DNA from: Verrucomicrobiota bacterium | Lineage (GTDB): Bacteria > Verrucomicrobiota > Verrucomicrobiia > Palsa-1439 | DNA: 64,000 bases | Assembly (NCBI GenBank): GCA_003164675.1 | Contig: PLTX01000059.1 | Location: 12,428-76,427, forward strand | Reading direction: 5' to 3' | Shown here: piece by piece, positions 35,685-64,000 of the stretch | Layout of the letters: every line of letters starts with the position of its first letter | Position numbering within the stretch: position 1 is the stretch's first letter | Translations under genes and position numbers: made by a program | Notes under the pieces: generated by a model | Databases searched by the model: none | What the model was told of the DNA's origin: nothing | The model's input: the letters and a program-made list of their open reading frames with translations, nothing else

Positions 35685-36557
35685 CTAATCCGCGGCCTTG
35701 AACTTGCGGCCGCTACGCCCCGAAAAATACTTCAGCAGTTGCGCCAGCGTTTGCTTGAGTTGCTTCCGATGCACGATGAGATCGACCAGCCCGCGCTCGC
35801 GCAGAAATTCACTGGTCTGGAACCCCTCGGGCAACTCCTGTTGCGTCGTCTCCTTGATCACGCGCGGACCCGCAAACCCGATCAACGCCTTCGGTTCGGC
35901 GATGATCACGTCCCCGAGCGAGCCGTAGCTGGCCATCACGCCCGCCGTGGTCGGATGCGTCAGCACCGAGATGTAGGGCAACCCCGCTTTCGCGTGCAAC
36001 GCCAGCGCCCCACTGGTCTTGGCCAGTTGCATGAGGCTCAGAATCCCCTCGTACATCCGCGCCCCGCCCGACGCCGAGACGATGATCACCGGAATCTTCA
36101 GCTCCGTCGCCTTCTCGATGGCCCGGGTGATCTTTTCGCCGACCACCGACCCCATGCTTGCGCCCAGAAAACTGAAATCCATCACCGCCAGCGACACGTC
36201 GTGGCCGTCGAGCTTGGCGAGCCCGATCATCACCGCGTCGTTCATGCCCGTTTGCCGGTGATACGTGCGCAACCGCTCCGAATACGCCGCCACGCCCGTG
36301 AATTTGAGCACGTCCACGCTCGCCAAATCGGCATCGACTTCGCGGAACGTCCCCTCATCCGCCAGCATCGCCACGCGTTCGGCAGCGGTCATCGTGAAGT
36401 GGTAATCGCATTTCGCGCAGACCTTCGCATTCGCTCTGAGTTCCTTGGTATAGATGATCTCGCCGCATTGCTTGCACTTCACCCACAAGCCGCTCGGGAT
36501 CTCGTGCTTCTTCGTCTTGGTCTCGGAAATCTTCGGCTTTTCTTCGAATACCGCCAT
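35685..36557 (-). CDS. accD: Acetyl-CoA carboxylase carboxyltransferase beta subunit
   Basis: N-terminal Zn-ribbon CKQCGEIIY...CAKCDYH and carboxyltransferase domain. Confidence 0.95.
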   Translation of the reverse strand: MAVFEEKPKISETKTKKHEIPSGLWVKCKQCGEIIYTKELRANAKVCAKCDYHFTMTAAERVAMLADEGTFREVDADLASVDVLKFTGVAAYSERLRTYHRQTGMNDAVMIGLAKLDGHDVSLAVMDFSFLGASMGSVVGEKITRAIEKATELKIPVIIVSASGGARMYEGILSLMQLAKTSGALALHAKAGLPYISVLTHPTTAGVMASYGSLGDVIIAEPKALIGFAGPRVIKETTQQELPEGFQTSEFLRERGLVDLIVHRKQLKQTLAQLLKYFSGRSGRKFKAAD

Positions 36558-36767
36558 GATTATCTTCCTCGCGCGACGGCGACCGCCGTGACCTCCCTGG
36601 GCCCCGCCAACCCCAGAATCTTACCATACCCATCCCCGGTTGCGCCAGCCGGAAAGCCGAGCGGCGATTAGCCGCGAGACGCGCCGCGTGTGTGCTGACG
36701 ACGCAAATGCCGCTGGCAGGCGTCGCGATCCTTGTCTGGCCCCGCATGAAATCCTATAATTGCCTCG

Positions 36768-39020
36768 ATGACCGGACGGAAGGCAACCGATAACGCGCCG
36801 CTGCCGCAGGCTGTGGAGTCGCTTTCGATCAGGAACACCTGCTTGACGCAGAGGCCCTGGCTCTTGGCGTTGATCTTGGTGGTCGTCACGTTCGTGGCCT
36901 ACCAGCCGGCCTGGCACGCTGGCTTCATCTGGGATGATGACGATCATCTGACCGCCAATCCCGCCATGACCGCGCCCGATGGGCTGCGCATGATTTGGTC
37001 GTCGTTGGCCGTATCGCGGTACTATCCCCTGACGCTGACCAGTTTCTGGGTTCAACGCCGGTTATGGGGACTGAATCCCCTGCCGTATCACCTGGTCAAC
37101 ATCGCGCTAAATGCGATCAACGGCCTCATGGTGTTCTTGGTGCTGCGTCGCCTGCGCGTGACGGCGGCGTGGTTGGCGGCGGCGGTTTGGGTGTTGCATC
37201 CGGTGAATGTCGAGTCGGTCGCCTGGATTACCGAACTGAAGAATACCCAATCCGGCTTCTTCTTCCTCGGCGCGCTGCTGTGTTTCCTGCGGTTTGAAGC
37301 GAAGGGTCAGCCTCGCTGGTATGTGCTGGCCCTGCTGTGCGGCGCCTGCGCCCTCTTAAGCAAAGCCTCGACCGTGGTGCTCCCATTCGCGCTCCTGCTG
37401 TGCGTCTGGTGGGAACGCGGAAGCTGGCGACTCCGGGACATCGGGCGCATTGTGCCGTTCTTTGTTCTGGCTTTGCCCATGTCGGTGTTGGCGATGGTCG
37501 AGCAGCGAGGACACATCGCGCGTCAAGGCACAACCGAATGGTCGCTGGGGATTGGGCAACGGTTCATCGTCGCCGGCAAAGCAATCTGGTTCTACCTCGG
37601 TAAGGTTGTCTGGCCGGTAAACCTGGCCTTTGTATATCCGCGCTGGGAGGTGGCGACGGATTCAGCCGGCTCGTACCTGCCGCTGGCGGGGGTGCTGGCT
37701 GGGGGTGTCATCTTGTGGACGTTGCGACGGCAGCCATGGGCGCGAGCGGGTCTCTTTGGATTTGGTTTTTTTGTGGTGGCGCTGTTGCCGGTGCTCGGAT
37801 TCGTCGACGTGTTCTATTTTCGCTACTCCTTTGTCGCGGATCATTTCCAGTATCTGGCGAGTCTGGGCGTTATCGCGTGCGCCACGAGCGGGATCACATA
37901 TGCCGTAGATCGCAGCAGATCGTCATCGGCACGGGTGGGGAACATCATTTATCCGGCGCTGCTGGTGACGCTGGCCGGGCTGACGTGGAGGCAGAATCAG
38001 ATTTACCACGACCCGGAAACACTCTGGCGCGATACGCTGGCCAAGAATCCCAACGCCTGGATGGTGCATTACAATCTGGGGGAAGCCTTGTGGCAGGCGG
38101 GCCGGCGCGAGGAGTCCATCACGCAGTACGAGCAGGCGTTGGAACTCAACCCCGATTATGCCGAGGCGCATTTCAACCTGGGCTTTGCCCTGGTGCAATT
38201 GGGCAAGGTTCCGGAGGGCATCGGGCAGTACGAGCAGGCACTGCGGATCAACCCCGATTATGCCGAAGCCCACTACAATCTCGGGGACGTGCTGTGGCGA
38301 ACAGGCCAGATCGAGGGGGCCATCAGGGAGTACGAGCAGGCGCTGCGGGTCAAACCCGATTATGCCAAAGCACACAATAACCTCGGGGTTGCCCTGGTAC
38401 GCCTGGGCCGGTTCCGGGAGGCGATTGGACATTACCAGCAGGTGGTACGACTCACCCCGGGTCAGCCGGCGGCGCATTTCAACCTCGGAACGGCTCTACT
38501 GCAGGTCGGCAAGCCGTCAGATGCGGCGGCGCAATTCACGGAGACGTTGCAACTCAAACCCGATGATGCCGCGGCGCACTGCAATTTGGGAAGCGCCCTG
38601 CTCCAACTGGGCCGGGTTCCGGAAGCGATCGAACAATTCCAGGAAACGTTGCGCCTTCAGCCGGATTACCCGGATGCGCATTTCAATTTGGGAAATGCTT
38701 TGGCGGCATCCGGCAAACTGACCGACGCCCGGGATCAGTACGAGCAGGCCTTGCGCCGCAAGCCCAACGACGCCGAGGCGCACAACGATCTGGGCCTCGT
38801 CCTTTTCCAACTCGGCAAGGTCGCGGACGCGAAAGCCCAGTACGAAGCTGCGTTACGCATCAATTCCGATTGTGTCGATGCGCACTACAATCTGGGGATC
38901 GCCTTGGAACAAACAGGCGAAGTCCGCGAGGCGATGGGACACTACGAGCAGGCGCTCCGGATCAAGCCCGACCTCGCCAAAGTGCGGAACGCGCTCACCC
39001 GACTCCAAGCTCGACAGTAA
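36768..39020 (+). CDS. TMTC-like membrane protein (DUF1736/PMT_2-like N-terminal domain) with ~9 C-terminal TPR repeats
   Basis: Paralog of the 523-2559 gene (shared YQPAWHAGFIWDDDDHL and AWITELKNTQS motifs). Highly regular 102-bp TPR periodicity from ~38100 to ~38990. Confidence 0.8.
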   Translation: MTGRKATDNAPLPQAVESLSIRNTCLTQRPWLLALILVVVTFVAYQPAWHAGFIWDDDDHLTANPAMTAPDGLRMIWSSLAVSRYYPLTLTSFWVQRRLWGLNPLPYHLVNIALNAINGLMVFLVLRRLRVTAAWLAAAVWVLHPVNVESVAWITELKNTQSGFFFLGALLCFLRFEAKGQPRWYVLALLCGACALLSKASTVVLPFALLLCVWWERGSWRLRDIGRIVPFFVLALPMSVLAMVEQRGHIARQGTTEWSLGIGQRFIVAGKAIWFYLGKVVWPVNLAFVYPRWEVATDSAGSYLPLAGVLAGGVILWTLRRQPWARAGLFGFGFFVVALLPVLGFVDVFYFRYSFVADHFQYLASLGVIACATSGITYAVDRSRSSSARVGNIIYPALLVTLAGLTWRQNQIYHDPETLWRDTLAKNPNAWMVHYNLGEALWQAGRREESITQYEQALELNPDYAEAHFNLGFALVQLGKVPEGIGQYEQALRINPDYAEAHYNLGDVLWRTGQIEGAIREYEQALRVKPDYAKAHNNLGVALVRLGRFREAIGHYQQVVRLTPGQPAAHFNLGTALLQVGKPSDAAAQFTETLQLKPDDAAAHCNLGSALLQLGRVPEAIEQFQETLRLQPDYPDAHFNLGNALAASGKLTDARDQYEQALRRKPNDAEAHNDLGLVLFQLGKVADAKAQYEAALRINSDCVDAHYNLGIALEQTGEVREAMGHYEQALRIKPDLAKVRNALTRLQARQ

Positions 39021-39316: not shown

Positions 39317-40945
39317 ATGAAAGCGAAGTCGGATCTCTGTCTGGGTGGTCTGGCCAAAGCACTCTCCCGAGGACTCGTCTTAATTGTCTGTTTCTTCTTC
39401 GGCAACGCTCGCATATACCCCGACACGTTATACGTGTCAGACTTTGCCAATAATGCGATTGAGAGATTCGATTCAAGTGGAAATGGGGAAGTATTTGCGA
39501 ATACAGATTTGGACGGGCCTCTGGGCATTGCCTTTGACAGCAGCGGTAATCTCTATGTAGCGAACCAGAACAACAACACGATTGTGAGGTTCGACACCGG
39601 CGGAAACGGGACGGTTTTTGCAAACGCCAACTCCGGTCTGGACATTCCTCACGGCCTCGCGTTTGACACGAACGGCAATCTCTATGTGTCGAATGTGGGC
39701 AACAGCACAATTGTTAAGCTCGACGCGAACGGAAATGGGACGGTCTTCAGCACAGCGGGCTTGAACGTGCCTAGTGGACTCGCGTTCGATAGCAGTGGCA
39801 ATCTCTACGCTGCGAATTGGGGTGACAGCACAGTTGTGAGATTTGATTCGAGCGGAAACGAGTCCCTCTTCGCTACGGGCTTAGACTACCCGCAGGGACT
39901 TGCGTTTGACAGCAGCGGGAATCTTTTCGCCGTGAACTATGGCGATAATGGACCCATCGGGCACGCCACCGTTGAGAAGTTTGCCCCAGATGGAACGAGC
40001 TCACTGTTCGCCAACTCCTACATGTATAGGCCCGCAGACTTAGCCTTCGATAGCGGAGGCAATCTCTATGTGGCCAGCACTGGCAACTCTCGGATTGTGA
40101 AATTCGATTCGACTGGAAACGCGTTTGTGTTCGCAGATCAGAGCTCGGGCGTCCCCTACACCTTCTTCCCCTACGGCATCGCTGTACAGGTTCCAAAGCC
40201 CACAATTACGCTACTCGGGGACAATCCGCTCACAAACGAGTGCCACACGGCCTTCACCGACCCAGGTGCCACAGCGTCGGAAGACGGAACTGACTTGAGC
40301 AGCAACATTGTCGTGAGTGGGACGATGGACGCCAATATGCCCGGTACTTACACCCTGACCTACACTGTCGTGGATGCGTTGGGCAACCGAGCCACGGCCA
40401 CCCGGACCATTATTGTGGTGGATACCACGCCGCCCGTCATTACCTGCCCGGCCAACATCGTGGTGAGCGCGGTTTTTCCAAAAGGTGTGTTTGTCAGTTT
40501 TGTGGTCACCGCAACCGATGAATGCTCGACCGCCACCGTCACCAGCACGCCGTCCAGTGGCAGCTTGTTTGCCATTGGCGACACGACAGTCACATGCACC
40601 GCGATCGACGGCTCAGGCAACCAATCTGCATGTCATTTCAACGTGCACGTCAAAGGCGCGGCGGAACAGATCAATGACCTCATCGCTCTGGTACGCGCCC
40701 TCAATCTCAAGCCGTGGACGACGTATGTCCTCACCGCCGAGCTCCAATCCGCTTCCAACGCGTTGCGCCGGGGTAACACCCGCGCCGCCTGCATCGACCT
40801 CGACGTCTTCATTTTTGAAGTGGATGTGCAGACATGGTGGGGACAGATCTGGCCCCCATCACGGGCCCGCCTCTTGGTTCGTCAAGCCCAACGCATCCAG
40901 AACGTCTTGGGTTGCGACCACTGGTTCGGTCCCGGCCATTATTGA
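39317..40945 (+). CDS. Secreted NHL-type beta-propeller repeat protein with C-terminal Ig-like/HYR domains
   Basis: Signal-peptide-like N-terminus. About 6 tandem ~44-aa units (SSGNLYVAN...TIVRFD). PPVITCP...TATDECS...VTCTAIDGSGN HYR-like module. Confidence 0.75.
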   Translation: MKAKSDLCLGGLAKALSRGLVLIVCFFFGNARIYPDTLYVSDFANNAIERFDSSGNGEVFANTDLDGPLGIAFDSSGNLYVANQNNNTIVRFDTGGNGTVFANANSGLDIPHGLAFDTNGNLYVSNVGNSTIVKLDANGNGTVFSTAGLNVPSGLAFDSSGNLYAANWGDSTVVRFDSSGNESLFATGLDYPQGLAFDSSGNLFAVNYGDNGPIGHATVEKFAPDGTSSLFANSYMYRPADLAFDSGGNLYVASTGNSRIVKFDSTGNAFVFADQSSGVPYTFFPYGIAVQVPKPTITLLGDNPLTNECHTAFTDPGATASEDGTDLSSNIVVSGTMDANMPGTYTLTYTVVDALGNRATATRTIIVVDTTPPVITCPANIVVSAVFPKGVFVSFVVTATDECSTATVTSTPSSGSLFAIGDTTVTCTAIDGSGNQSACHFNVHVKGAAEQINDLIALVRALNLKPWTTYVLTAELQSASNALRRGNTRAACIDLDVFIFEVDVQTWWGQIWPPSRARLLVRQAQRIQNVLGCDHWFGPGHY

Positions 40946-40973
40946 GTTTTCGCTCCTGCACGCCCTGCGGGGG

Positions 40974-41066
40974 TTACACCCCTCTCGCCACGGCCAGCGC
41001 AATCACATCTTTCGCTCCGGCATGACGCATCGTCTTGGCGCAACTGTCCATCGTGGCACCGGTCGG
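40974..41066 (-). pseudogene. Remnant of the comF 3' end (about 30 codons, third copy)
   Basis: The minus strand encodes ...FPTGATMDSCAKTMRHAGAKDVIALAVARGV*, matching the ComF C-terminus. Over ~95 nt the nucleotides resemble the ends of the copies at 42450 and 43445. Confidence 0.6.
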
Positions 41067-41503
41067 AAACATGTAGCGAAGATGCCGCCTTGACATCACG
41101 ACCAGCAGCCAATCCGGCGTGTTTTCTGAAAACTAGCGGGTGCCCGCAAACTAAACGGTGGTGCATCCTGGGCGAGGCCAGGTGAGTCTTGGGAGAAGCG
41201 CAGCCACCATTTGTCGATTGTTCACGGGCACCCACTGCCTAACGTGAACAGGATCTGCTCTCGGGGAGGTGGGGGTGAAGACACCCCGGCATTGAGCAAC
41301 ATTTCCTGTCCTCATAATTCCAGAGCCTAGGCAGTACGTCATCCGCGCACAATGGGGTGAATACCCCATGGAGAAAAGAATCGTGCCATTCGCCATTCTC
41401 CCCGGAATGGCGGTGCGCCGGGTTTTCTAGGGTGAATTCCCGGTCGGAAATAGGGAATGTAGTAATTTCGCCTTTCCACGGAACGCCTCTACGGTCTGGT
41501 GTG

Positions 41504-41920
41504 ATGAACCAGACCCCCAATGCGCCGCCCACTCCCGACAACTTTCCCCAACCGCTCCGCACGTTGGTGGTGGATGATTCCTTCAGGTTCTTGAAGGCCT
41601 TGTGCGCTTACTTACAGACAGAACCGTTGTTTCAAGTGGTCGGTACCGCGATGGATGGCGGGGAGGCGCTGCACATGGCGGAATTCCTCGGGCTGGACTT
41701 AATCTTGATGGATCTAAACATGCCGGTCATGGACGGCTTGCAAGCAACGGCGATTCTGCGCCGCCGCGTGCCCAACATGCGGATTATCATCATGACGACG
41801 GAGCACCCGGCCACAGCCGAGGCGAAGGCACGGGCCCATGGCGCACACGGCTTCATTTGGAAACCACGGATCATAGGCGATCTGATAACCGAGGTTCATC
41901 ACGCATGGCAACAGACGTAA
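41504..41920 (+). CDS. Single-domain response regulator (CheY-like receiver)
   Basis: REC domain with VVDDS and DLILMDLNMP acidic-pocket motifs and a conserved Lys (FIWKP). No output domain. Confidence 0.8.
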   Translation: MNQTPNAPPTPDNFPQPLRTLVVDDSFRFLKALCAYLQTEPLFQVVGTAMDGGEALHMAEFLGLDLILMDLNMPVMDGLQATAILRRRVPNMRIIIMTTEHPATAEAKARAHGAHGFIWKPRIIGDLITEVHHAWQQT

Positions 41921-42408
41921 TTCCTCACAACGACTCTGACCTGCCTCAGTCCAATCCTTACACCACGGGCGGGTCTGCCGGGGTCAGGCAGGATGTCATT
42001 CTCGTCATCGACGATGACACCGAAGTCTTGAATAGCGTTCGCAGGTTGTTGAAACGCGAAGGCTGGGTGGTGCTGACCGTCTCCGACCCCCTGGAAGGCC
42101 TCCAGATGTATGAGACTCTTTGGCCGGAAATCCAATTGGTGCTGTTGGACTACTTCATGCCCAACCTCCGCGGGGACGAAGTCTTTGAACGGCTGCAACG
42201 CATCAACCCGCATGTTCGTGTCCTGTTAACAACCGCGTGTGACGGCGACGTCTCACAGGAGATGCTCCAGGGTGGACTTTGTGGCTTCGTCCAGAAACCA
42301 GTCTCGCCGCGAGACCTCATTCGCAGGATTCACCACGCCATGAATCACCATGACCCGCTGGCGCCCCCGTACCTGCCCGTAACTGCTCAAATCGATCAGA
42401 ACAGTTGA
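41905..42408 (+). CDS. Single-domain response regulator (CheY-like receiver) with short N- and C-terminal extensions
   Basis: REC motifs VIDDD, LVLLDYFMP, FVQKP. Overlaps the previous receiver gene by 16 nt. Confidence 0.75.
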   Translation: MATDVIPHNDSDLPQSNPYTTGGSAGVRQDVILVIDDDTEVLNSVRRLLKREGWVVLTVSDPLEGLQMYETLWPEIQLVLLDYFMPNLRGDEVFERLQRINPHVRVLLTTACDGDVSQEMLQGGLCGFVQKPVSPRDLIRRIHHAMNHHDPLAPPYLPVTAQIDQNS

Positions 42409-42445
42409 GATCACATGATTTATGAGGCTGGTACGCTGTCCTGCC

Positions 42446-42886
42446 GGGGTTACACTCCTCTCGCCACGGCCAGCGCGATAACCTCCCTCGCCCCGGCCCC
42501 GCGCAACGTCCTGGCGCAACTGTCCGTCGTGGCGCCGGTCGTAAACACATCGTCCAACAGGACGAGGCGTTTGGCTTTGAAGACTGCCTCATTGCGCACG
42601 GCGAATGCCCCGCGCAGATTCCGCGCCCGGGCTTCGGCATCGAGTTTGGTTTGGGTCCCGGTATCCTTGACGCGGCGCACCTTCCCTTTGAGAACGGGAA
42701 CATCGAAAGCCCGGCTCAACCCGGCCGCGAGGTGCTCCGCTTGGTTGAACTCGCGCTGCCGTCGCTTCCGCGGGTGCAACGGCACGGGAACGATGCCATC
42801 GATTTCGCGCCAGTCGATCCAGCGTTGCGCCGCCCCCCGCAGCCAATCCACGAGATGCCCGCCGAAATACATCTCGATATACTATC
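42446..42886. repeat. ~440-bp direct repeat, copy B (truncated comF duplicate)
   Basis: See copy A. Confidence 0.8.
42450..42872 (-). pseudogene. Truncated duplicate of comF (C-terminal 140 codons, phosphoribosyltransferase-like domain only)
   Basis: About 93% nucleotide identity over ~440 bp with the 3' end of the intact comF at 43445-43880. Retains an in-frame ATG (MYFGGHLV...). Confidence 0.65.
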
Positions 42887-42925
42887 CATTAAGCACCATG
42901 GGAACTGGCGCCCTACATGGACTGT

Positions 42926-43273
42926 TCAAGATCGAATCATCACCAGCATCATCTTGAACCGACGCACCGCCTTCAACGCATGCGGCTTGTTGGCAGGCAT
43001 GATGATGATTTCTCCTGCACGGACCTGGTGAGTCTTGCCTGAAATCGTGATCTCTGCCTCCCCATCGAGGATGTGTGTCAACGCATCAAACGGGGCCGTG
43101 TGCTCGCTCAATCCTTGACCTGCATCAAATGCAAACACAGTCAGCGTGCCCGTCTTTGCCTTCAGGATCTCGCGGCTGACAACGGCATCCGCTTGATAGT
43201 CGATCAGGTCGACAACCTTGTGAGGGAGCACCCCCAGTTTGCCAACGGTCTTGGGTTTCTCATCGGTTTTCAT
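42926..43273 (-). CDS. Cupin-domain protein
   Basis: Small beta-barrel protein with a cupin-like His-containing motif (...GLSEHTAPFDALTHILDGEAEI...). Confidence 0.6.
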   Translation of the reverse strand: MKTDEKPKTVGKLGVLPHKVVDLIDYQADAVVSREILKAKTGTLTVFAFDAGQGLSEHTAPFDALTHILDGEAEITISGKTHQVRAGEIIIMPANKPHALKAVRRFKMMLVMIRS

Positions 43274-43440
43274 TTCACTGCTCCGAGCTGGCCGCTATCA
43301 ATGATACCCTGCGATGCAACTCAGCGTTTACCATGACTCCCCTCGCCCGCGATGGTAGCGACTCGCCGTCGGTTGTCAATTCCCCGCCGGGCAAATCCAG
43401 GGTGGTATCAATCAGCAGAATGATGTGTCCACCCGTTGGC

Positions 43441-43881
43441 GCGCTTACACTCCTCTCGCCACGGCCAGCGCAATAACCTCCCGCGCCCCGGCCCCGCGCA
43501 ACGTCTTGGCGCAACTGTCCATCGTGGCGCCGGTCGTAAAAACATCGTCCAACAACACAAGTCGTTTGCCTTTGAAAATTGTCTCATCGCGCACGGCGAA
43601 TGCCCCGCGCAGATTCCGCGCCCGGGCTTCGGCATCGAGTTTGGTTTGCGTCCCGGTATCCTTGACGCGGCGCACCTTCCCTTTGAGAACGGGAACATCG
43701 AAAGCCCGGCTCAACCCGGCCGCAAGGTACTCGGCCTGATTGAACTCGCGCTGGCGTTGTTTGCGCGGGTGCAGCGGCACGGGAACGATGCCGTCGATCT
43801 CGCGCCAGTCAATCCAGCGTTGCGCCGCCCCCCGCAGCCAATCCACCAGATGCCGGCCGAAATACATCTCGCGATTGTATT
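43441..43881. repeat. ~440-bp direct repeat, copy A (3' end of the intact comF)
   Basis: About 93% identical to 42446-42886. A third ~95-bp partial copy lies at 40965-41066. Confidence 0.8.
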
Positions 43882-44209
43882 TGAATCGCAAGATGCAGTC
43901 GCGGACGACCCCTTGCGCGCGGCAGGCGCATACGGTCCGGCTGAAATAGAACCGCAGATCCTGGCAATAACCGCAGACGAACGTCTCGCCCGTCACCGTC
44001 CCCGGAAACGGCGAGGCGCATTGTCGACAGAACGGCGGCTCAATCAGTTTGGCCGAGGACACGCAGGCGGGGCAGACGATGCCGGGGTCGGTGTCGGCCA
44101 GGGGACAACCGCAGAACGGACAATTCCGCGGCCAGACCAGGTCTAGCGCGCGCCGTGCCCAGAGTTGGACAGCCCGGGACCGCCCAGTGGTTTGAATATC
44201 GTCTGGCAT
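43445..44209 (-). CDS. comF: Competence protein ComF (N-terminal 4-Cys zinc-finger plus phosphoribosyltransferase-like domain)
   Basis: CPFCG...CPAC zinc ribbon followed by the PRTase-like LVLLDDVFTTGAT motif. Start at ATG 44209 is tentative; the ORF stays open upstream into the CPBP gene. Confidence 0.75.
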   Translation of the reverse strand: MPDDIQTTGRSRAVQLWARRALDLVWPRNCPFCGCPLADTDPGIVCPACVSSAKLIEPPFCRQCASPFPGTVTGETFVCGYCQDLRFYFSRTVCACRAQGVVRDCILRFKYNREMYFGRHLVDWLRGAAQRWIDWREIDGIVPVPLHPRKQRQREFNQAEYLAAGLSRAFDVPVLKGKVRRVKDTGTQTKLDAEARARNLRGAFAVRDETIFKGKRLVLLDDVFTTGATMDSCAKTLRGAGAREVIALAVARGV

Positions 44210-45051
44210 AACCACACCATCAGCACGAGGAGCACCACGAGCATCGGCCACGACGCCACGTCCTGCGTGACATCGACGGTCGCCGACCAGCGCATGAACT
44301 CGTTGACCAGCACCCAGCCCGCGTGCAGTCCGATCGGCAGATATAATGCCTCCGTTTTGGCGTATGCCAACCCCAAAACGCAGCCAACCAGAAACAGCGA
44401 CACGAACCCAACGAAAACGCCTTTCTGAACCAACGACTGCGACACGATCCAGACAAGGCACTTTCCGCCGCTGGCCCACGTGACCTCGTTGGCCGGGATG
44501 TTCACGCCATTCGGTTTGAGGAAGTGCACCGCCGAATACACCACGCTGGCCAATGCCACGGCGACGGCCATGTTCATGCGACGCTGGAGCGCGCCTTGGA
44601 GCGCCCCGCGAAAAAACGTTTCCTCGATGACCGCGACCGCCACACCCACAAAAAAGAATTTCACCGCGCCGCCCGCCATTTCTGCCGAAGTCCTGGTGAA
44701 CGCCAGCCGGTGGCCTCCGAAGACGACGAGGAAGGTAATCATGACTGTCAGTGTTGCCACGCCGAGGAGGTATCCGCCCAGGGCATGACGCCACCAGTCG
44801 CGCGCCCGCACATACCCGATATCGCTCCAAAAGCGAAAACCGATGACGCGCCGCATCGGCCACAGCCCGGCCAGCGCGACGAGCATGATCGATCGGTCAA
44901 AGATCCGATGGAACGGATATGTTGCGTAAACATGAAGAGCGTTTACCCGAGGGGCCACCTGTTGCACGGCCCAGAAGAGCCATGGGGCAAGCAGCGCGCC
45001 GATCAGGATGATGGCGACGAAATAAAGGCCGATGACACGGGACGCTCTCAA
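44143..45051 (-). CDS. CPBP-family intramembrane glutamic endopeptidase (CAAX protease/Abi family)
   Basis: Polytopic protein with the EETFFRG motif and a conserved His motif (SAVHF). Its start is adjacent to the stop of the upstream hypothetical. Confidence 0.75.
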   Translation of the reverse strand: MRASRVIGLYFVAIILIGALLAPWLFWAVQQVAPRVNALHVYATYPFHRIFDRSIMLVALAGLWPMRRVIGFRFWSDIGYVRARDWWRHALGGYLLGVATLTVMITFLVVFGGHRLAFTRTSAEMAGGAVKFFFVGVAVAVIEETFFRGALQGALQRRMNMAVAVALASVVYSAVHFLKPNGVNIPANEVTWASGGKCLVWIVSQSLVQKGVFVGFVSLFLVGCVLGLAYAKTEALYLPIGLHAGWVLVNEFMRWSATVDVTQDVASWPMLVVLLVLMVWLCQTIFKPLGGPGLSNSGHGAR

Positions 45052-45489: not shown

Positions 45490-48177
45490 CTATTGCGTGG
45501 TAATGTCGCCGTCCTGCAGTTTCAGCGCCTTGACCTTCGCCGATTGACGATCAATCGGGTTCTCAACCACCGGCGGTTGCGCCTCGCTCGATTGGCTTGG
45601 CGCCATTGAGTCGATCCTGTCACTGCGGGGCGGCGGCGCAGCCCGATTCGGTTGGTTCGGTGCCATCGAGCCGATACGGTCACTATTTGGCGGCTGCGCC
45701 TCGCTCGATTGGCTCGGCGCCGTTGAGCCGATGATGCCACTGGGCGGCGGCGCCGCGTTATTCGTCCCCGAACTACCCTTGGGGAAGTACCGCTCTTCTA
45801 ACTCTTCGCTCACGCCCATCTGTTGCAAGCGGCGCTTGGCTTCGGCAACGGCCACCAGGTCGGAGCGTAAAACGACGGGGCGGATGAAGATGATCAACTC
45901 CGTGCGCGTCTTGCTGTTCGTCTGGCTCTTGAAGAGTTGGCCGACAAACGGAATGTCGCCCAAGAACGGCGTCTTGGTCGCCGACACCGTCTTCGTCCGC
46001 TGGATCGAACCGCCGAGAACAATGGTGCTCCTGTCTTGCACCGCCAGCGACGATTTCGCTTCCCGCTTGTTAATGATGGGAACGGTCGTGCCGCCAATAT
46101 TCACGTTGGCCCCGAGATCGTTCACTTTCTGCTCGATGTCCATCCGCACGTAGCCGTCGGGATTGATCCGCGGTGTCACGTGCAACTCGATGGCGACGTC
46201 TTCGTATTGGATACTGGCGGTCACGCCGGAGGTGGACAACGTGCCAGAACCGCTGACGAGCGTGGACGTCTGCGACGTCGGCACAGGCACGGACTGGCCC
46301 ACGATGATGTCCGCCTCCTGGTTGTCCATCGTTTGAATGACGGGCGTGGAGAGTATTTTGCTGTTGGACGTAGTGGCGAGCGCGTGAATGACCATGTCGA
46401 GGTTCAAATTCCTAAACGTGGTAAAGTAGGTAAGACCCGAGCCCGCAGACAGGGCCGCCGACGTCAAATTGGTGGCCGCCGAGTTGAGTTGAACGGGCGT
46501 ATTGCCGTCGGTGTTGTTGCCGCCCGTGCCGTAAATCGAGCGGTGCTGCTCCAAGCGTTCGAACAAGTCCACGCCCACGTCCAGCTCATTGTTGAGCGTC
46601 AGTTCGGCGATCACGACTTCGATCTGCACCTGAGCGACAGACGTGTCGAGGCTCTTGACCAGTTCCTGGATGCGCGCCATGTCCTCCTTGGTGGCCATCA
46701 CCAGCAAGCAATTCGTCCGCGGATCGGGCAGGATGTGGACGCCTTCCGCGTACTGCAGGAAGCCCGTGTTCGCGGCACCAGCGCCAGCACTACTGCTCAT
46801 CGTCGGGGCCGGCACGGACGGAGCGCGCGCGCCCGAGGTGGTCGTGCCGGTCGAGGACGTGGTCCGCCGTGTCGAAGAGGAGGAGGAGGAGGAAACCGAT
46901 CCGCCCGTGATCAATGCATTCAGCAACCCGGCCACATCCTCGGCGGTGGCGTAATTGAGCAGGATCACTCTCATCACGACATCGGGCTCGACCTTCGCGT
47001 CCAGCTCGGCAATCAGCCGGTCGAAGAACCCGAAATTGGTGATCCGGGTCAATATGAACAGTTTGTTCGTTCGATCATCAGCCGCCATGATGACCTTTCC
47101 CTCGACAACCGATTCTTCGCCGGTTGCCTGTGTCTGACCCTGACCCTGCGACGCAGGCCGCCGGATGGGAGACGGCACTTGTCCTGATTGACTGGGCGCG
47201 GCGGCGTGGGTGCCCGCTTGCTCGGCGTCCTGGATGATGCTCTGGAGCCGCGCCATGACTTCGGCGGCTTTGGCGTGCTTGAGGACGTACGACCGCATTT
47301 CCATCCGTAGCGCCGAGGGTTGATCGACATAGGTGACAATCTCCATCATTTGCTTCAAGTTCGCCGCAGTCTCCGAAATCAGGATGCTGTTCGAATCTTG
47401 CAGCGCCATCAACTGGCCATACGGATGGAGGTACGGTTGCAGCACAGGAACGACATCCGAAGCCTTGGCGTTCTTCAGGGGGATAATCTGCGTGCCCAAG
47501 GTGTCGGCCGGCGCGATCACGCGCCCGACCGGGAGACCTTCCTGCTTGGCCGTGTTGATCTGTACGATTTTCAAGAACTTCTCACCAAGCGGTATCGCCG
47601 CGATGTTGTTGATCGCCAGCACGCTATCGAGGGCCTGAATCGCCTCGTCCTTGGTCAGTTTGGACTGGCTGCGAAAATTGATCTGCGCGTTGATGTTTGG
47701 CGCGGAGATGATCGAGCGGCCCGTGAGCCGCGAATACCAGTCGAGGATCGCGGTAATCGGCGCTCCTTGAAATTCGAAGTCGATGACGGCTTGATCCGAC
47801 TGGGCCGGGCGGGCCGATGCCGGAGCGGGTGACGGCGGTGGTGGTGGCCGAATTGGCGGCGCGGGTTGTGCCGGCGTTTTGGCAGCGGCGGCGACACTGG
47901 AGCCTTGCGGTGGTCGCGCTGGCGGTGGAGCCGGAGCAGCCACTACGGGCGGCGGCGTATGCGGGATGTCCAGGAGTTGCTTCGGCAGGCCATTGGTATT
48001 GGTGGCTGTGGTCGCCTTGTTGGTTTTGTCGGTATCCGCTTCCCGGTTGGGATCGGTTTGGGAAACCGTGTTGGTTCTGTCCTCGGCGTACGCGACGCTA
48101 CGCGGTCGAATACCCGTCAGGATGGCCAGCCATGTCGATACGGCCACAGTCAATAAACTCAATCTCAGCTTTCTCAC
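45490..48177 (-). CDS. gspD: Type II secretion / type IV pilus secretin (GspD/PilQ family), with low-complexity inserts and a C-terminal 20-aa tandem repeat
   Basis: Signal peptide, N0/N1-like domains and a C-terminal secretin domain (NSKILSTPVIQTMDNQEADIIVGQSVPV). Pro-rich N-terminal linker. Ser/Thr-rich insert. 3 x 60-bp repeats at the 3' end. Confidence 0.9.
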   Translation of the reverse strand: MRKLRLSLLTVAVSTWLAILTGIRPRSVAYAEDRTNTVSQTDPNREADTDKTNKATTATNTNGLPKQLLDIPHTPPPVVAAPAPPPARPPQGSSVAAAAKTPAQPAPPIRPPPPPSPAPASARPAQSDQAVIDFEFQGAPITAILDWYSRLTGRSIISAPNINAQINFRSQSKLTKDEAIQALDSVLAINNIAAIPLGEKFLKIVQINTAKQEGLPVGRVIAPADTLGTQIIPLKNAKASDVVPVLQPYLHPYGQLMALQDSNSILISETAANLKQMMEIVTYVDQPSALRMEMRSYVLKHAKAAEVMARLQSIIQDAEQAGTHAAAPSQSGQVPSPIRRPASQGQGQTQATGEESVVEGKVIMAADDRTNKLFILTRITNFGFFDRLIAELDAKVEPDVVMRVILLNYATAEDVAGLLNALITGGSVSSSSSSSTRRTTSSTGTTTSGARAPSVPAPTMSSSAGAGAANTGFLQYAEGVHILPDPRTNCLLVMATKEDMARIQELVKSLDTSVAQVQIEVVIAELTLNNELDVGVDLFERLEQHRSIYGTGGNNTDGNTPVQLNSAATNLTSAALSAGSGLTYFTTFRNLNLDMVIHALATTSNSKILSTPVIQTMDNQEADIIVGQSVPVPTSQTSTLVSGSGTLSTSGVTASIQYEDVAIELHVTPRINPDGYVRMDIEQKVNDLGANVNIGGTTVPIINKREAKSSLAVQDRSTIVLGGSIQRTKTVSATKTPFLGDIPFVGQLFKSQTNSKTRTELIIFIRPVVLRSDLVAVAEAKRRLQQMGVSEELEERYFPKGSSGTNNAAPPPSGIIGSTAPSQSSEAQPPNSDRIGSMAPNQPNRAAPPPRSDRIDSMAPSQSSEAQPPVVENPIDRQSAKVKALKLQDGDITTQ
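45598..45776. repeat. 3 x ~60-bp tandem repeat inside the 3' end of gspD (encodes 20-aa units APSQSSEAQPP.../APNQPNRAAPPPRSDRIDSM)
   Basis: Direct comparison of consecutive 60-nt blocks (GGCGCCATTGAGTCGATCCTGTCACTG...). Confidence 0.75.
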
Positions 48178-62941: not shown

Positions 62942-64000
62942 CATGACCAATTTCCGGATTCTGGCGACCATTGTGCTCATCGGATTTCTCAGTTGCCGCT
63001 GTGACGCCATCACAAACTACGTCGTGTGGACCAGGCTCTACAGCTTCACCGGAGGCGCCGACGGCGGGATCCCGGAATCCTGGCTTATCCAGGCCGGTGA
63101 CGGCACTTTCTACGGCACGACGTCGCAGGGGGGCGCTAACAACAGCGGCACAGTGTTCCGGATCACATCGGCGGGCACGCTGACGACCTTGTACAACTTC
63201 ACGGGCGGCAATGACGGAGCCACCCCGATCGCCGGCCTCTTCCAGGGCAGCGACAGCAATTTCTACGGCATGACGACGCGCGGCGGCATCAATGACACGG
63301 GCACGGTCTTTCAGATCACGTCTGCCGGGACATTGACCACACTGCATGGCTTCACCGGCGGCACCGATGGCGGTTACCCGCTGGGAGGGGTCATCCAGGG
63401 CGGTGACGGGAATTTCTACGGGACAACGTCCCAAGGTGGCGCCAACAACACCGGCACCGTCTTCCAGATCACCTCGGCCGGGACATTCACCACCTTGTAT
63501 TCCTTTCTCGGCGGCACCAATGGCGCCATCCCAGAAGCCGGGCTTGTTCAGGCCACGGATGGCAACTTCTATGGAACGACCTCGATCGGCGGCTCCAACA
63601 CCTACGGCACGGTATTCTCGATCAGCTCCAATGGCGCGTTCACGACGGTCTATCAGCTCAACAAGGCCGACGGACGCTACCCAGCCGCCGCGCTCATCCA
63701 GAGTTTCTCCGACGGAGACTTCTACGGAACGACCCGCCTCGGCGGGGATCGTGGGGAGGGAACCGCGTTCAAGGTCAGTTCGCAAGGGACGTTTACCACA
63801 CTCTTCGACTTTGGCGGGTCGGACGGCGAAAGGCCCAGCTCGTCTCTCCTGCAAGCCCAAGACGGTTTGTTTTACGGCACGACCTTCCTCGAGGGGTACC
63901 ACTACGGCACGCTGTTTCAAATGGACTCGAATGGCGTGTTCAACACCTTGGCCAGTTTCCTCGGTGACATCAACGGTGGTGTCCCCTATGCGGCACTGGT
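62942..64000 (+). CDS. Secreted GloVer-type (choice-of-anchor) tandem-repeat protein; the 3' end lies outside the window
   Basis: Signal peptide MTNFRILATIVLIGFLSC. At least 7 tandem ~47-aa units with a G-FYGTT-GG--GTVF-I-S-G-TTL consensus. Absent from the ORF track because there is no in-window stop. The long antisense ORF 62763-63920 is spurious. Confidence 0.8.

Follow-up and report, generated by a model that had tools for sequence, protein, structure and literature searches.

At the locus considered here, comF is followed by several successive repeats of its own 3′ end, with unrelated genes lying between the copies. Within the window (the whole 64-kb stretch of Verrucomicrobiota DNA that was analysed), comF has four 3′ ends, all on the minus strand: that of the intact gene, and those of three copies designated c2, c3 and r4. 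The first-pass annotation had described nested copies interleaved with a cupin gene and two regulators, an anatomy that is confirmed here; its count of three is raised to four by r4, a degenerate vestige.

Layout of the comF–accD interval

The intact comF (ComFC) gene (43445–44209, minus strand) encodes 254 aa, with matches to Pfam DZR_2 (4e-10) and Pribosyltran (9e-9). Its N-terminal domain (NTD) comprises a zinc ribbon, a strand (91–97) and a helix (101–111), whilst the C-terminal domain (CTD, residues 115–254) has a PRT fold. The top Foldseek PDB match to its AF2 model (pLDDT 89.5) is H. pylori ComF, 7p0h. In the portion of the published account of that protein drawn on here (PDB 7P0H; PMC9005727), H. 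pylori ComFC similarly joins a Cys-rich zinc-ribbon NTD to a PRT CTD with a DDxxTTGxT PRPP loop, but it is 191 aa in length, whereas the larger window protein has a double zinc ribbon; the same portion mentions neither a separate CTD, as in c2, nor a split gene, as in two relatives of the window organism (L036 and L058).

Beyond the comF stop, a minus-strand spacer (43274–43444) has its first 25–28 nt in common with the comF downstream flanks of two related loci, L013 and L016. Within this spacer, upstream of the cupin gene, is a sigma-70-like site (43352–43379), a consensus match of a kind that is not enriched relative to shuffled sequence. The Cupin_2 gene (42926–43273, minus strand, 115 aa; Pfam 1.8e-10) is the cargo of the youngest module; it is also present in the close relative L046, and ~70 nt of its 3′ end remain in L013. 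It is followed by a conserved 'type 1' leader (42873–42925, minus strand), which adjoins the c2 ATG on its 5′ side. The leader shows no homology to comF sequence upstream of Met115, and is significantly similar to the leaders of L013, L039, L052 and L053 (scores of 21–44, shuffles 6.9 ± 1.2). The two types of c2 leader display no significant likeness to each other, and therefore the breakpoint, at codons ~110–122, may have arisen more than once, a possible recurrence that hints at selection or a sequence-directed process.

The c2 copy itself (42450–42872, minus strand) is an unbroken ORF of 140 codons, beginning with ATG at the native Met115 codon. Its homology to comF covers 427 nt (42450–42876) at 93.0 % identity (blastn E=1e-180), with 30 differing positions and flanks unique to each copy. 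A copy of ~440 bp and ~93 % identity, retaining an ATG and the whole PRT domain, had been correctly recognised, with bounds of 42446–42886 that need adjustment, as homology begins at 42876. Adjacent to c2 are two genes for receiver-domain-only proteins, RR2 (41905–42408, 167 aa; Pfam Response_reg 2e-20) and RR1 (41504–41920, 138 aa; 8e-23). Rather than converging with each other, as previously supposed, these are in tandem on the plus strand with a 16-nt overlap, and converge with comF and c2. Upstream of RR1 lies a non-coding spacer (41126–41370) that is 89 % conserved with L010.

The next copy, c3 (40974–41069, minus strand), preserves in relic form the final 32 codons of comF, with 82/96 nt identical to the intact gene (85 %, E=2e-23), matching the earlier description of a diverged ~95-bp copy of the last ~30 codons. 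Both c2 and c3 share ~12 nt beyond the stop (TAACCCC.GCAGG) that intact comF does not have; the c3 downstream flank (~12 nt, to 40961) is of the type seen after c2, and after comF in L007 and L008. Two plus-strand cargo genes are then encountered. The first encodes an NHL-repeat/Ig-like/HYR surface protein (39317–40945, assigned by Pfam); its GC content is 0.52–0.56, compared to a core value of ~0.61, and it is missing at the corresponding position of L010. The second encodes a PMT_2/TPR protein (36768–39020), from a family that recurs between comF and accD in other species.

Finally, r4 (~36564–36659, minus strand) adjoins accD (35685–36557, minus strand), the conserved right-hand border of the interval. 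Local alignment of r4 to the window comF end gives a score of 26 (2000 shuffles, 9.5 ± 1.6), and to the L022 comF end a score of 34 (shuffles, 9.0 ± 1.5); it also keeps a GAGGA Shine–Dalgarno-like motif and the TTTCCGGCTGGCGC / TATGGTAAG blocks. Identity to comF thus drops monotonically toward accD (c2 93 %, c3 85 %, r4 ~62 %), and the start positions of the copies differ, at −427 for c2, −96 for c3 and −96 to ~−125 for r4. The 5′ end of c3 falls on the commonest r4 boundary (−96), a coincidence that weighs against the account favoured below.

The comF–accD junction in related genomes

Comparison across ~60 related Verrucomicrobiia loci shows that comF adjoining accD is the ancestral state. 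Distant relatives have a gap of only 6–19 nt between the two genes, with the accD ribosome-binding motif lying inside the last comF codons; the modules between the window copies are therefore insertions, as had been proposed. Within one clade, 0.1 to >10 kb of species-specific accessory genes lie between comF and r4, and r4 occurs in all members of the clade, and wherever among the relatives comF and accD lie apart. Its boundary is variable, with −96 being commonest and ~−125 occurring in L065, L071 and L016. Minimal states are found in L026 (comF stop, 6 nt, r4), L042 and L071, and r4 has the appearance of a comF end that was duplicated in tandem over a short length. In L025 and L026 it carries clade-B-specific comF states, and so arose independently.

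The same type 1 leader and c2 module occurs beside different cargo in different subclades, and their patchy distribution suggests that the histories of cargo genes and c2 leader may conflict with that of the species. Genes of mobile elements, integrases and transposases included, are absent from ~50 cargo ORFs taken from the ~60 loci, from the neighbouring genes and from the 64-kb window; the nearest, an IS1595 transposase, is ~24 kb away, outside the window. We consider it probable that small accessory-gene cassettes are exchanged at the comF–accD junction of this peat/soil Verrucomicrobiia clade, which would make the junction a recombination hotspot.

A conspecific pair, L013 with a cassette and L047 without, bears directly on how such exchange takes place. 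L047 differs from L013 and L049 at 0–3 positions in each 250 nt, across 8.7 kb on the upstream side and 4 kb on the downstream side, and is ~5–21 % divergent in a tract that begins at comF nt 93 and ends at c2 nt 44. Its only CTD shares 99.05 % identity with L013 c2, but no more than 88.7 % with the main L013 CTD. It follows from this match, and from the bounded tract of divergence, that homologous recombination with a double crossover accounts for the gain or loss of the cassette, the crossovers being in homologous stretches and not at att junctions. The duplicated comF segment is one homology arm of the exchange. The mechanism is read directly only in L013/L047, a species other than that of the window, and none of the conspecifics found for the window organism lacks the cassette.

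The complete architecture of the window is confined to conspecific contigs and L046, and is thus not the ancient, stable arrangement that had been held out as an alternative. Comparison with L046 reveals a mosaic, with comF-derived segments differing by 8–10 % and the cupin gene and RR2 by ~2 %. In the subclade of the window, the 3′ end of c2 and RR2–RR1 are co-linear with L010 (87 % for the last 63 nt of c2 plus RR2), and the sequence flanking c2 and c3 agrees with that found downstream of comF in L007 and L008. The c2 copy is an old shared module, moving between genomes by homologous recombination.

A probable recombinational origin for the copies

Our favoured explanation, which we hold to be likely, is that the comF 3′ copies are the residue of homologous recombination swapping cassettes between comF and accD. 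The process would have begun from the ancestral arrangement, with the comF stop a few nucleotides ahead of the accD start. A head-to-tail duplication of 105–150 bp of the comF end, occurring at least twice, would have left a decaying copy (r4) with accD, and opened a gap into which DNA could be inserted with neither gene being broken. The cargo of this gap then came to differ by species, with no recombinase carried in any. Modules, in the order comF CTD, spacer, cargo, leader and second CTD copy (c2), would be gained or lost by double crossover, as in the sister species and, by extension, in the window, with one crossover in the 5′ part of comF and the other within the CTD repeat. When a module is gained, the CTD already in place would be shifted distally along with all that follows it, and would become 'c2' (C-terminal displacement). 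Repeated events, together with deletions, would produce the age-ordered series of the window: comF and cupin; c2 and the RR pair; c3 with the NHL and TPR-PMT genes; r4 and accD.

C-terminal displacement is known from Rhs, CdiA and T6SS effector loci, where it creates 'orphan' 3′ fragments and immunity-gene arrays (Jackson 2009, Poole 2011 via Kirchberger 2017, PMC5361080). There, a new 3′ end and its linked downstream genes similarly enter via homology in the conserved upstream part, the old 3′ end and downstream genes are shifted distally, with the former left as a 5′-truncated fragment, and repetition builds an ordered array that crosses strains through homologous recombination. The comF locus differs in three respects. 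Its displaced ends all encode essentially one PRT domain rather than polymorphic toxin domains, its linked genes (cupin, CheY-like regulators, NHL protein, lyase and transporters) are not immunity genes, and both crossovers of the L013/L047 event are homologous. The last of these reflects the second CTD copy that the cassette brings with it as a right arm, and it makes homology-facilitated illegitimate recombination unnecessary for spread.

Nevertheless, for the first c2 arrangement to arise, a single illegitimate joining event is required where NTD and CTD meet. Homology-facilitated illegitimate recombination during natural transformation (de Vries & Wackernagel 2002; Prudhomme 2002; via PMC5361080, PMC3240628) could plausibly have produced the earliest comF-copy junctions. 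Candidates, in which unrelated DNA is joined to comF, are the cupin end/comF codon 115 junction and that upstream of c3, but the sole junction tested for a one-sided signature, beside c3, was not significant.

Silent partial gene copies also occur in the pilE/pilS system. The resemblance extends to partial 3′ copies, without the promoter of the gene itself, near an expressed gene and to signs of gene conversion, including the L013 comF/c2 mosaic and a suggestive tract between the window copies (P=0.08). Unlike pilE/pilS, there is no hypervariable region, the comF product is cytoplasmic or membrane-associated, and there is no sign of useful variation from conversion between comF copies.

Persistence of c2 and other accounts of the repeats

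A tentative possibility, less probable than the favoured reading, is that c2 is kept as a functional gene, encoding a ComFC paralogue that consists of the PRT domain and stands alone, or else the C-terminal half of a ComFC made in two pieces, with the repeats a by-product of selection for c2 and not neutral scars. This complements exchange by homologous recombination, and competes with it only on why the copy persists. The copy holds the whole PRT domain, with its start in a predicted loop (112–114, AF2 model) at the domain boundary, and corresponds to the H. pylori ComFC CTD (L55–D190; PMC9005727). With the leader conserved, c2-type ORFs are unbroken in at least eight lineages, and in L036 and L058 comF is split into an N-terminal fragment plus c2, the sole CTD at the locus. 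Values of dN/dS for c2-type ORFs are 0.06–0.16 (omega 0.066 for L058 c2 versus L015/L017 comF), and neutrality is rejected on the c2 branches of L013 (p=7e-4) and L039 (p=4e-10); the near-identity of L013 c2 to the CTD of the only comF in L047 points the same way. In some lineages, c2 is kept by selection or is the sole CTD at the locus.

Against this, c2-type copies have decayed in three lineages (L052b, L053/54 and L010), and a low omega could be acquired from functional alleles of comF, through gene conversion or recombination. The window c2 branch has nine non-synonymous and six synonymous changes, compared to 0 and 12 for comF; neutrality is not rejected (p=0.15), and constraint is looser than for comF (p=0.001). 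Omega between the c2 copies of the window and L046 is 0.28, and L046 c2 is substituted at conserved motifs. Neither a sigma-70-like promoter nor a clear Shine–Dalgarno motif was found ahead of window c2, and both HpComFC domains are required in vivo (PMC9005727). In the window lineage c2 is redundant with full-length comF and under relaxed constraint. The earlier suggestion of a stand-alone PRT protein thus holds for the completeness of the domain and its constraint elsewhere, and is weakened for the window; putative expression of c2 in this form is plausible.

Turning from persistence to origin, a purely intragenomic history, in which the comF 3′ end and adjacent DNA were serially duplicated in tandem in one lineage, and the copies then diverged, underwent gene conversion and were differentially deleted, all without any traffic between genomes, is unlikely. 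It accommodates the simple r4 duplications of L026, L042 and L071, the finding that within each genome its own comF is the closest relative of c2, and the roughly equal distance of window comF and c2 from outgroups. A tandem unit would repeat its flank, however, and the sequences following the comF and c2 stops differ from base one. The divergent L013 tract within otherwise near-identical genomes, the mosaic with L046 and the single leader–c2 module with varying cargo also oppose it. Serial segmental duplication, offered by the first-pass annotation, comes nearer than site-specific insertion but is incomplete: it fits the look of r4 but not c2, the old module moved by recombination.

Its other suggestion, repeated site-specific insertion, is less probable again, and is not supported here. 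Integrative elements of the ICE/CIME type accrete in tandem at gene or tRNA 3′ ends, with direct 3′-end repeats parting successive modules and the functional gene restored at the proximal end. By analogy with such arrays at tRNA, fda and guaA, elements or integron-like cassettes, with a recombinase encoded elsewhere, would have inserted repeatedly at the comF 3′ end, each bringing a replacement end. The staggered direct repeats between unrelated modules fit this, as do a cargo GC slightly below that of core genes and breakpoints recurring near −96 (c3, r4 in two clades and an L011/L012 relic) and near codon 115 (all c2-type copies, and the L036 and L058 truncations). On the other hand, integrase, transposase, excisionase and conjugation genes are all absent from the cargo ORFs scanned and from the window, and searches for a tRNA gene, an Rfam match or terminal inverted repeats were negative. 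The boundary of r4 varies, the copies are of three lengths (427, 96 and ~95–125 nt) and have no identical short att core at a fixed position, modules of 1–4 kb carry no mobile-element genes, and the L013/L047 crossovers are spread inside long homology.

The remaining account, an expanded or collapsed repeat in the assembly, has a negligible chance of being correct: whilst 427-nt repeats at 93 % identity can mislead short-read assemblers, the 30 differences and unique flanks distinguish the copies, the exact 140-aa c2 product is present in 57 blocks of the sequence collection, and the architecture recurs, with identical gene order, in 5/5 loci listed for at least 23 independent metagenome contigs (ENA and JGI, from different samples and pipelines), and with diverged sequence in L046.

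The comF array and its protein product

The intact comF (ComFC) gene occupies positions 43445–44209 on the minus strand and is recognisable from both halves of its product. Residues 21–83 match Pfam DZR_2 (E=4e-10), constituting an N-terminal Cys-rich zinc ribbon in which Cys30, 33, 46, 49, 61, 64, 79 and 82 are invariant across 42 homologues. The C-terminal domain (CTD, residues 115–254) matches Pfam Pribosyltran and carries an invariant DDVFTTGAT motif, in keeping with a phosphoribosyltransferase (PRT) fold with a PRPP loop. The AlphaFold2 model of the protein (pLDDT 89.5), when searched with Foldseek, returned the ComF of H. pylori (7p0h, E=4e-7) as its top match. The gene closes a pilus or type II secretion-like operon encoding T2SSE, T2SSF, pseudopilins, PilM/N/O and a secretin, and these neighbours point to a putative part for ComF in DNA uptake and transformation. 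The first 67 nt of comF (44143–44209) overlap the 3′ end of the gene upstream, which encodes a CPBP (Rce1-like) protease, and a second CPBP paralogue is frequently found 3′ of comF at related loci (L006, L009–L012, L039, L048 and L064). The 3′ end of the secretin gene (45572–45756) harbours three tandem repeats of 57–60 nt with 69–85 % identity, which encode a repeating proline- and serine-rich C-terminal tail.

Downstream of comF lies a Cupin_2 gene (42926–43273, minus strand), followed by c2, a 427 nt copy of the comF end (42450–42876, minus strand; 93.0 % identity, E=1e-180), which contains an intact ORF of 140 codons beginning at the Met115 codon native to the interior of comF. Beyond this are two receiver-only response regulators on the plus strand, RR2 (41905–42408) and RR1 (41504–41920), and then c3, a copy of the last 32 comF codons (96 nt; 40974–41069, minus strand), with 82/96 positions identical (E=2e-23). 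An NHL/Ig-like surface-protein gene (39317–40945) and a PMT_2/TPR gene (36768–39020), both on the plus strand, separate c3 from r4, a degenerate comF-end vestige (about 36564–36659, minus strand) that sits directly upstream of accD (35685–36557, minus strand). The nested comF 3′ copies described in the first-pass annotation are hence real, with r4 raising their count to four. The two single-domain regulators are also present as described, but are not convergent on one another, being instead arranged in tandem with a 16 nt overlap, and both converging with comF. Alignment of r4 to comF ends gave scores of 26 and 34, compared with 9.5 ± 1.6 and 9.0 ± 1.5, respectively, for shuffled controls. Identity to comF drops monotonically toward accD, from 93 % in c2 to 85 % in c3 and about 62 % in r4. 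A stretch of ~12 nt past the stop codon is common to c2 and c3 and is absent from intact comF. Within the PMT_2/TPR gene, positions 38063–38980 form an array of 102 nt TPR repeats, and members of this gene family recur between comF and accD in several species (L008, L018, L045, L051 and L057).

Probable cassette exchange between comF and accD

The surrounding gene order (secretin, small ORF, CPBP protease, comF, accD, folC) is kept throughout ~60 informative loci from uncultured peat and soil Verrucomicrobiia, gathered by scans of genomes and of metagenomes and by exact-protein searches. Three outgroup lineages have the comF stop 6–19 nt ahead of the accD ATG, and the GGAG/GAGGA motif preceding accD is made by the final comF codons. 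Within clade A, to which the window belongs, the distance between the two genes ranges from 0.1 to >10 kb, and the accessory genes (cargo) found in this gap vary by species. They encode CPBP proteases, a polysaccharide lyase with an MFS transporter, peroxidase, S11 peptidase, adenylate kinase, PNPOx, flavin reductase, MIF/tautomerase, cyclophilin-like, Mrr-like and RraB-like proteins, TPR/PMT proteins, response regulators and cupin, alongside several ORFs with no Pfam match. The GC content of the cargo (0.52–0.58) is slightly lower than that of the flanking core genes (0.60–0.65).

A before-and-after comparison is provided by a conspecific pair of loci from a sister species, L047 and L013/L049, which display 0–3 mismatches per 250 nt across 8.7 kb upstream and 4 kb downstream. 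L047 possesses one comF, with the lyase and MFS genes directly after it. In L013, comF is followed by a TPR gene, ~70 nt of a cupin 3′ end, a conserved sequence directly 5′ of the c2 ATG (the type 1 leader), c2, and then the lyase and MFS genes. The sole divergent tract extends from comF nt 93 to c2 nt 44, beyond which the L013 c2 and the only CTD of L047 are identical. Overall, these two are 99.05 % identical, whilst the CTD of the main L013 comF shows only 88.7 % identity to that of L047, falling to 67–85 % in the 3′ half. The whole block of c2, lyase and MFS genes in L013 matches the comF CTD, lyase and MFS genes of L047 at 99.7 %. The crossovers accordingly map to comF nt <93 and CTD nt >44, inside long homology. 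The cassette was therefore gained or lost, in either direction, by a plain double crossover with one arm in the 5′ part of comF and the other in the CTD repeat. As the two loci also differ in the N-terminal region, the event was not a simple deletion between the repeats. It follows from the double crossover that c2 and the CTD of the sole comF are allelic, and that an acquiring genome has its own CTD, together with everything downstream, displaced distally.

The window array is most simply read as the outcome of serial displacement of this kind. Its flanks match those of different relatives: the sequences after c2 and c3 match that following the main comF of L007 and L008, and the window's own main comF is followed by sequence matching that in L013 and L016. 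The c2 3′ end and RR2–RR1 are co-linear with L010, which retains only 63 nt of c2, and relative to that locus the NHL gene with c3 is an indel. In comparison with L046, a close relative of the window, comF-derived segments differ by 8–10 %, whilst divergence in the genes for cupin and RR2 is only ~2 %, the kind of mosaic to be expected were the comF repeats the main site of crossover. On the serial-displacement reading, r4 would be the oldest relic, c3 a displaced end of intermediate age, since cut back to 96 nt, and c2 the CTD displaced most recently, with the present comF end, cupin and leader being the latest arrival. A gene-conversion tract within the window c2 is only suggestive (largest mismatch-free gap 75 nt, P=0.08). 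An apparent TPR-PMT 3′ remnant upstream of c3, noticed by eye and compatible with a one-sided, HFIR-like import, did not hold up against shuffled sequences (p=0.03 and 0.25).

Amongst known systems, this process is closest to the C-terminal displacement of Rhs, CdiA and T6SS effector loci, at which, in one published account, new 3′ ends and immunity genes enter via upstream homology and orphan 3′ fragments are left behind (PMC5361080). The resemblance lies in the layout, an intact comF followed by 5′-truncated copies accompanied by formerly downstream genes. Unlike those loci, the comF copies do not code for polymorphic toxins but all share a single PRT domain (nucleotide identity 82/96 to 93 %), and their neighbours are cupin, receiver-domain and NHL proteins rather than immunity genes. 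In a further difference, homology also underlies the right-hand crossover at comF, a second CTD copy being part of the cassette. To our knowledge, C-terminal displacement has so far been described for polymorphic toxin loci; the comF arrays would extend it to a non-toxin gene with unrelated cargo. These are genome dynamics of a known type, with no new molecular machine.

Other explanations for the array fare less well. Serial segmental duplication, offered as an alternative in the first-pass annotation, is partly right, in that r4 looks like a head-to-tail duplication. The mechanism preferred there, repeated site-specific insertion, is not supported. Staggered arrays of gene 3′ ends are commonly taken as the mark of site-specific integrative elements. 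Tandem accretion of such elements resembles the comF array in outline only, as neither the defining recombinase nor an att core was found. Pfam revealed no integrase, transposase, excisionase or conjugation gene among ~50 cargo ORFs from the ~60 related loci, and no mobility gene, tyrosine and serine recombinases included, in the modules of the window or anywhere in its 64 kb. In place of one short identical core at a fixed target position, the copies start at −427, −96 and −96 to −125. A tRNA-linked island or known RNA is rejected, with no tRNA gene or Rfam match found. The hallmarks of diversity-generating retroelements (DGRs) are a gene for reverse transcriptase and, between template and variable repeat, mismatches specific to adenine; this reading is ruled out by the lack of a reverse transcriptase domain in any scanned ORF and by the 30 comF–c2 mismatches, which are spread over A (6), C (7), G (7) and T (10), counted as the base in comF. 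Assembly error, also raised at first pass, is excluded by identical gene order in 5/5 loci listed, out of 23 independent contigs; public assemblies contain the exact 140 aa c2 product in 57 indexed blocks.

Displacement by homologous recombination thus remains the preferred reading, and the conspecific pair demonstrates, at the population level, that a staggered 3′-end array can form without a dedicated recombinase, the duplicated domain-coding segment serving as a portable homology arm for ordinary recombination. Staggered comF ends are also a caution for genomic-island prediction. As separate observations, an IS1595-family DDE transposase with adjoining HTH genes (L044 1393–2259) is present on the same JGI contig as the window, 3–4 kb past position 64000 and ~24 kb from comF, without showing any link to the comF repeats. 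In L039 (3885–4730), the main comF bears an in-frame insertion of 84 nt, and in L079 (1103–2038) one of ~170 nt; the c2 of L039 is intact and strongly constrained.

The c2 module and split comF genes

Copies of the c2 type start at the Met115 codon with a conserved leader directly 5′, and were counted only where leader and flanks had been inspected. Intact ORFs of 140–142 codons are found in the window, L046, L013/L049, L039–41, L052a, L036/37, L058 and L069, and decayed forms in L052b, L053/54 and L010. The many database entries for 140 aa ‘ComF’ proteins do not, as a class, represent such genes: of five representatives inspected, three proved to be the main gene annotated from a wrong start codon (P0030, P0050 and P0060, from L035, L042 and L038, respectively). 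Gene callers often take the internal Met115 as the comF start, and many 140 aa ‘ComF family’ entries are thus mis-called full-length genes.

The leaders fall into two types. Significant similarity links the window leader to every one of the four others of type 1 (L013, L039, L052 and L053), and likewise joins the two type 2 leaders, from L036 and L058, whilst comparisons between types were not significant. A reading of the leader as decayed comF sequence is not supported either, its similarity to comF upstream of Met115 not being significant. The genes flanking c2 vary between species on both sides. From these comparisons, c2 appears to be an old module common to several lineages. The first ~30 codons of c2-type copies also survive as short fragments in L018 (17786–17869 and 20059–20126), L053 (10610–10699) and L054 (10406–10495), the leader being preserved with them in L053/54; each L018 fragment adjoins a TPR-PMT paralogue, and the L053/54 fragment is just upstream of r4.

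At two loci, L036 (6316–8423) and L058 (278–1975), the first comF copy is an N-terminal fragment only, with a stop after residue about 113–121. It is followed by 0.9–1.3 kb of unrelated DNA, and then by the leader and an intact 140-codon CTD ORF, making c2 the sole CTD-coding copy at each locus and leaving comF split. The first copy of L036 also retains the final ~60 nt of comF past an internal deletion. Splitting by a transposon or IS element is ruled out, as no terminal inverted repeats were found at the junctions and the inserts encode RraB-like or unknown small proteins and no transposase. Apparently, two separate ORFs can encode ComFC, the cut falling exactly at the domain boundary.

With regard to this boundary, residue 115 of the ComF model lies in the loop joining helix 101–111 to helix 115–132. 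In the H. pylori ComF structure, the published description gives the PRT domain as L55–D190 (136 residues), the sheet of which gains two strands from the N-terminal domain (PMC9005727). Taken together, the modelled loop and these limits indicate that c2 is the entire CTD by the H. pylori definition, minus the N-domain strands that pack on it. The clustering of breakpoints at the domain boundary could, at a guess, reflect selection for a translatable, foldable CTD.

Pairwise dN/dS is equal among c2 copies (0.06–0.16) and intact comF CTDs (0.10–0.13), and that of the L058 c2 with the comF of sister species L015/L017 is 0.066 (7 non-synonymous and 30 synonymous differences). On outgroup-polarised branches, neutrality is rejected for the c2 of L013 (9 non-synonymous, 13 synonymous; p=7e-4) and of L039 (7 and 25; p=4e-10). 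Judged by these values, c2 is often constrained, or refreshed from constrained alleles. For the window c2 branch (9 and 6), neutrality is not rejected (p=0.15), and evolution is significantly looser than on the comF branch (0 and 12; p=0.001). Nine diagnostic residues (R5G, Q37R, Y47H, D94N, T96A, I97V, G100A, M116T and K121R) separate the c2 product from that of comF. The dN/dS of the window c2 against the L046 c2 is 0.28, and conserved motifs are altered in the latter. In the window lineage, the constraint on c2 is accordingly relaxed where full-length comF coexists.

It is conceivable, although we consider it rather improbable, that leader and c2 together form a functional stand-alone or split ComFC PRT domain and a built-in homology arm, with cargo spread by natural transformation. 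The product would then act in trans with the zinc-ribbon half, or alone in cytoplasmic ssDNA handling. Since every relative has the gene that c2 partly duplicates, the arm would be built in, and would let any cargo between comF and c2 pass among species by natural transformation. This would amount to a gene cassette system that is borne by transformation, needs no recombinase and has its anchor in a DNA-uptake gene. The likelihood that the unit of leader and c2 has some function of its own is modest.

The comF-end vestige upstream of accD

A comF-end vestige abuts accD at every locus where comF and accD are separated. Minimal states are seen in L026 (comF stop, 6 nt, r4, accD), L042 (a ~22 nt spacer) and L071 (a 150 nt gap), and look like head-to-tail duplications of 105–150 bp. 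The homology extends to about −111 to −125 in L065, L071 and L016; with r4 reaching about −125 in the least disrupted loci, a fixed, att-like boundary at −96 is ruled out, and the common −96 limit more plausibly reflects where a conserved block ends.

Two blocks, TTT(A/C)CG.CTGG.GC and TTGTGCTAA, are kept in r4, and also at comF synonymous sites where comF abuts accD, whilst drifting in displaced copies. The comF 3′ ends of L022–L024 and L027–L029 show no synonymous variation in the codons AGT TGT GCT AAG (TTGTGCTAA) or in the TTTACG block; in displaced comF copies, the TTGTGCTAA codons drift to TGC GCC. This pattern suggests a candidate accD regulatory element embedded in the comF coding sequence, and we infer that the comF end may hold accD expression signals, which would be the reason for the retention of r4. 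Neither r4 nor the c2 leader is supported as a sigma-70 promoter, a consensus scan returning nothing in either, and in this respect the conserved TTGTGCTAA block is only a hint.

The r4 copies of L025 and L026 belong to a clade other than clade A, and bear the comF-specific bases of their own clade, the remaining members of which lack r4. The duplication therefore arose at least twice, and on at least two occasions a short tandem duplication seems to have split the putative accD signals from the comF coding sequence.
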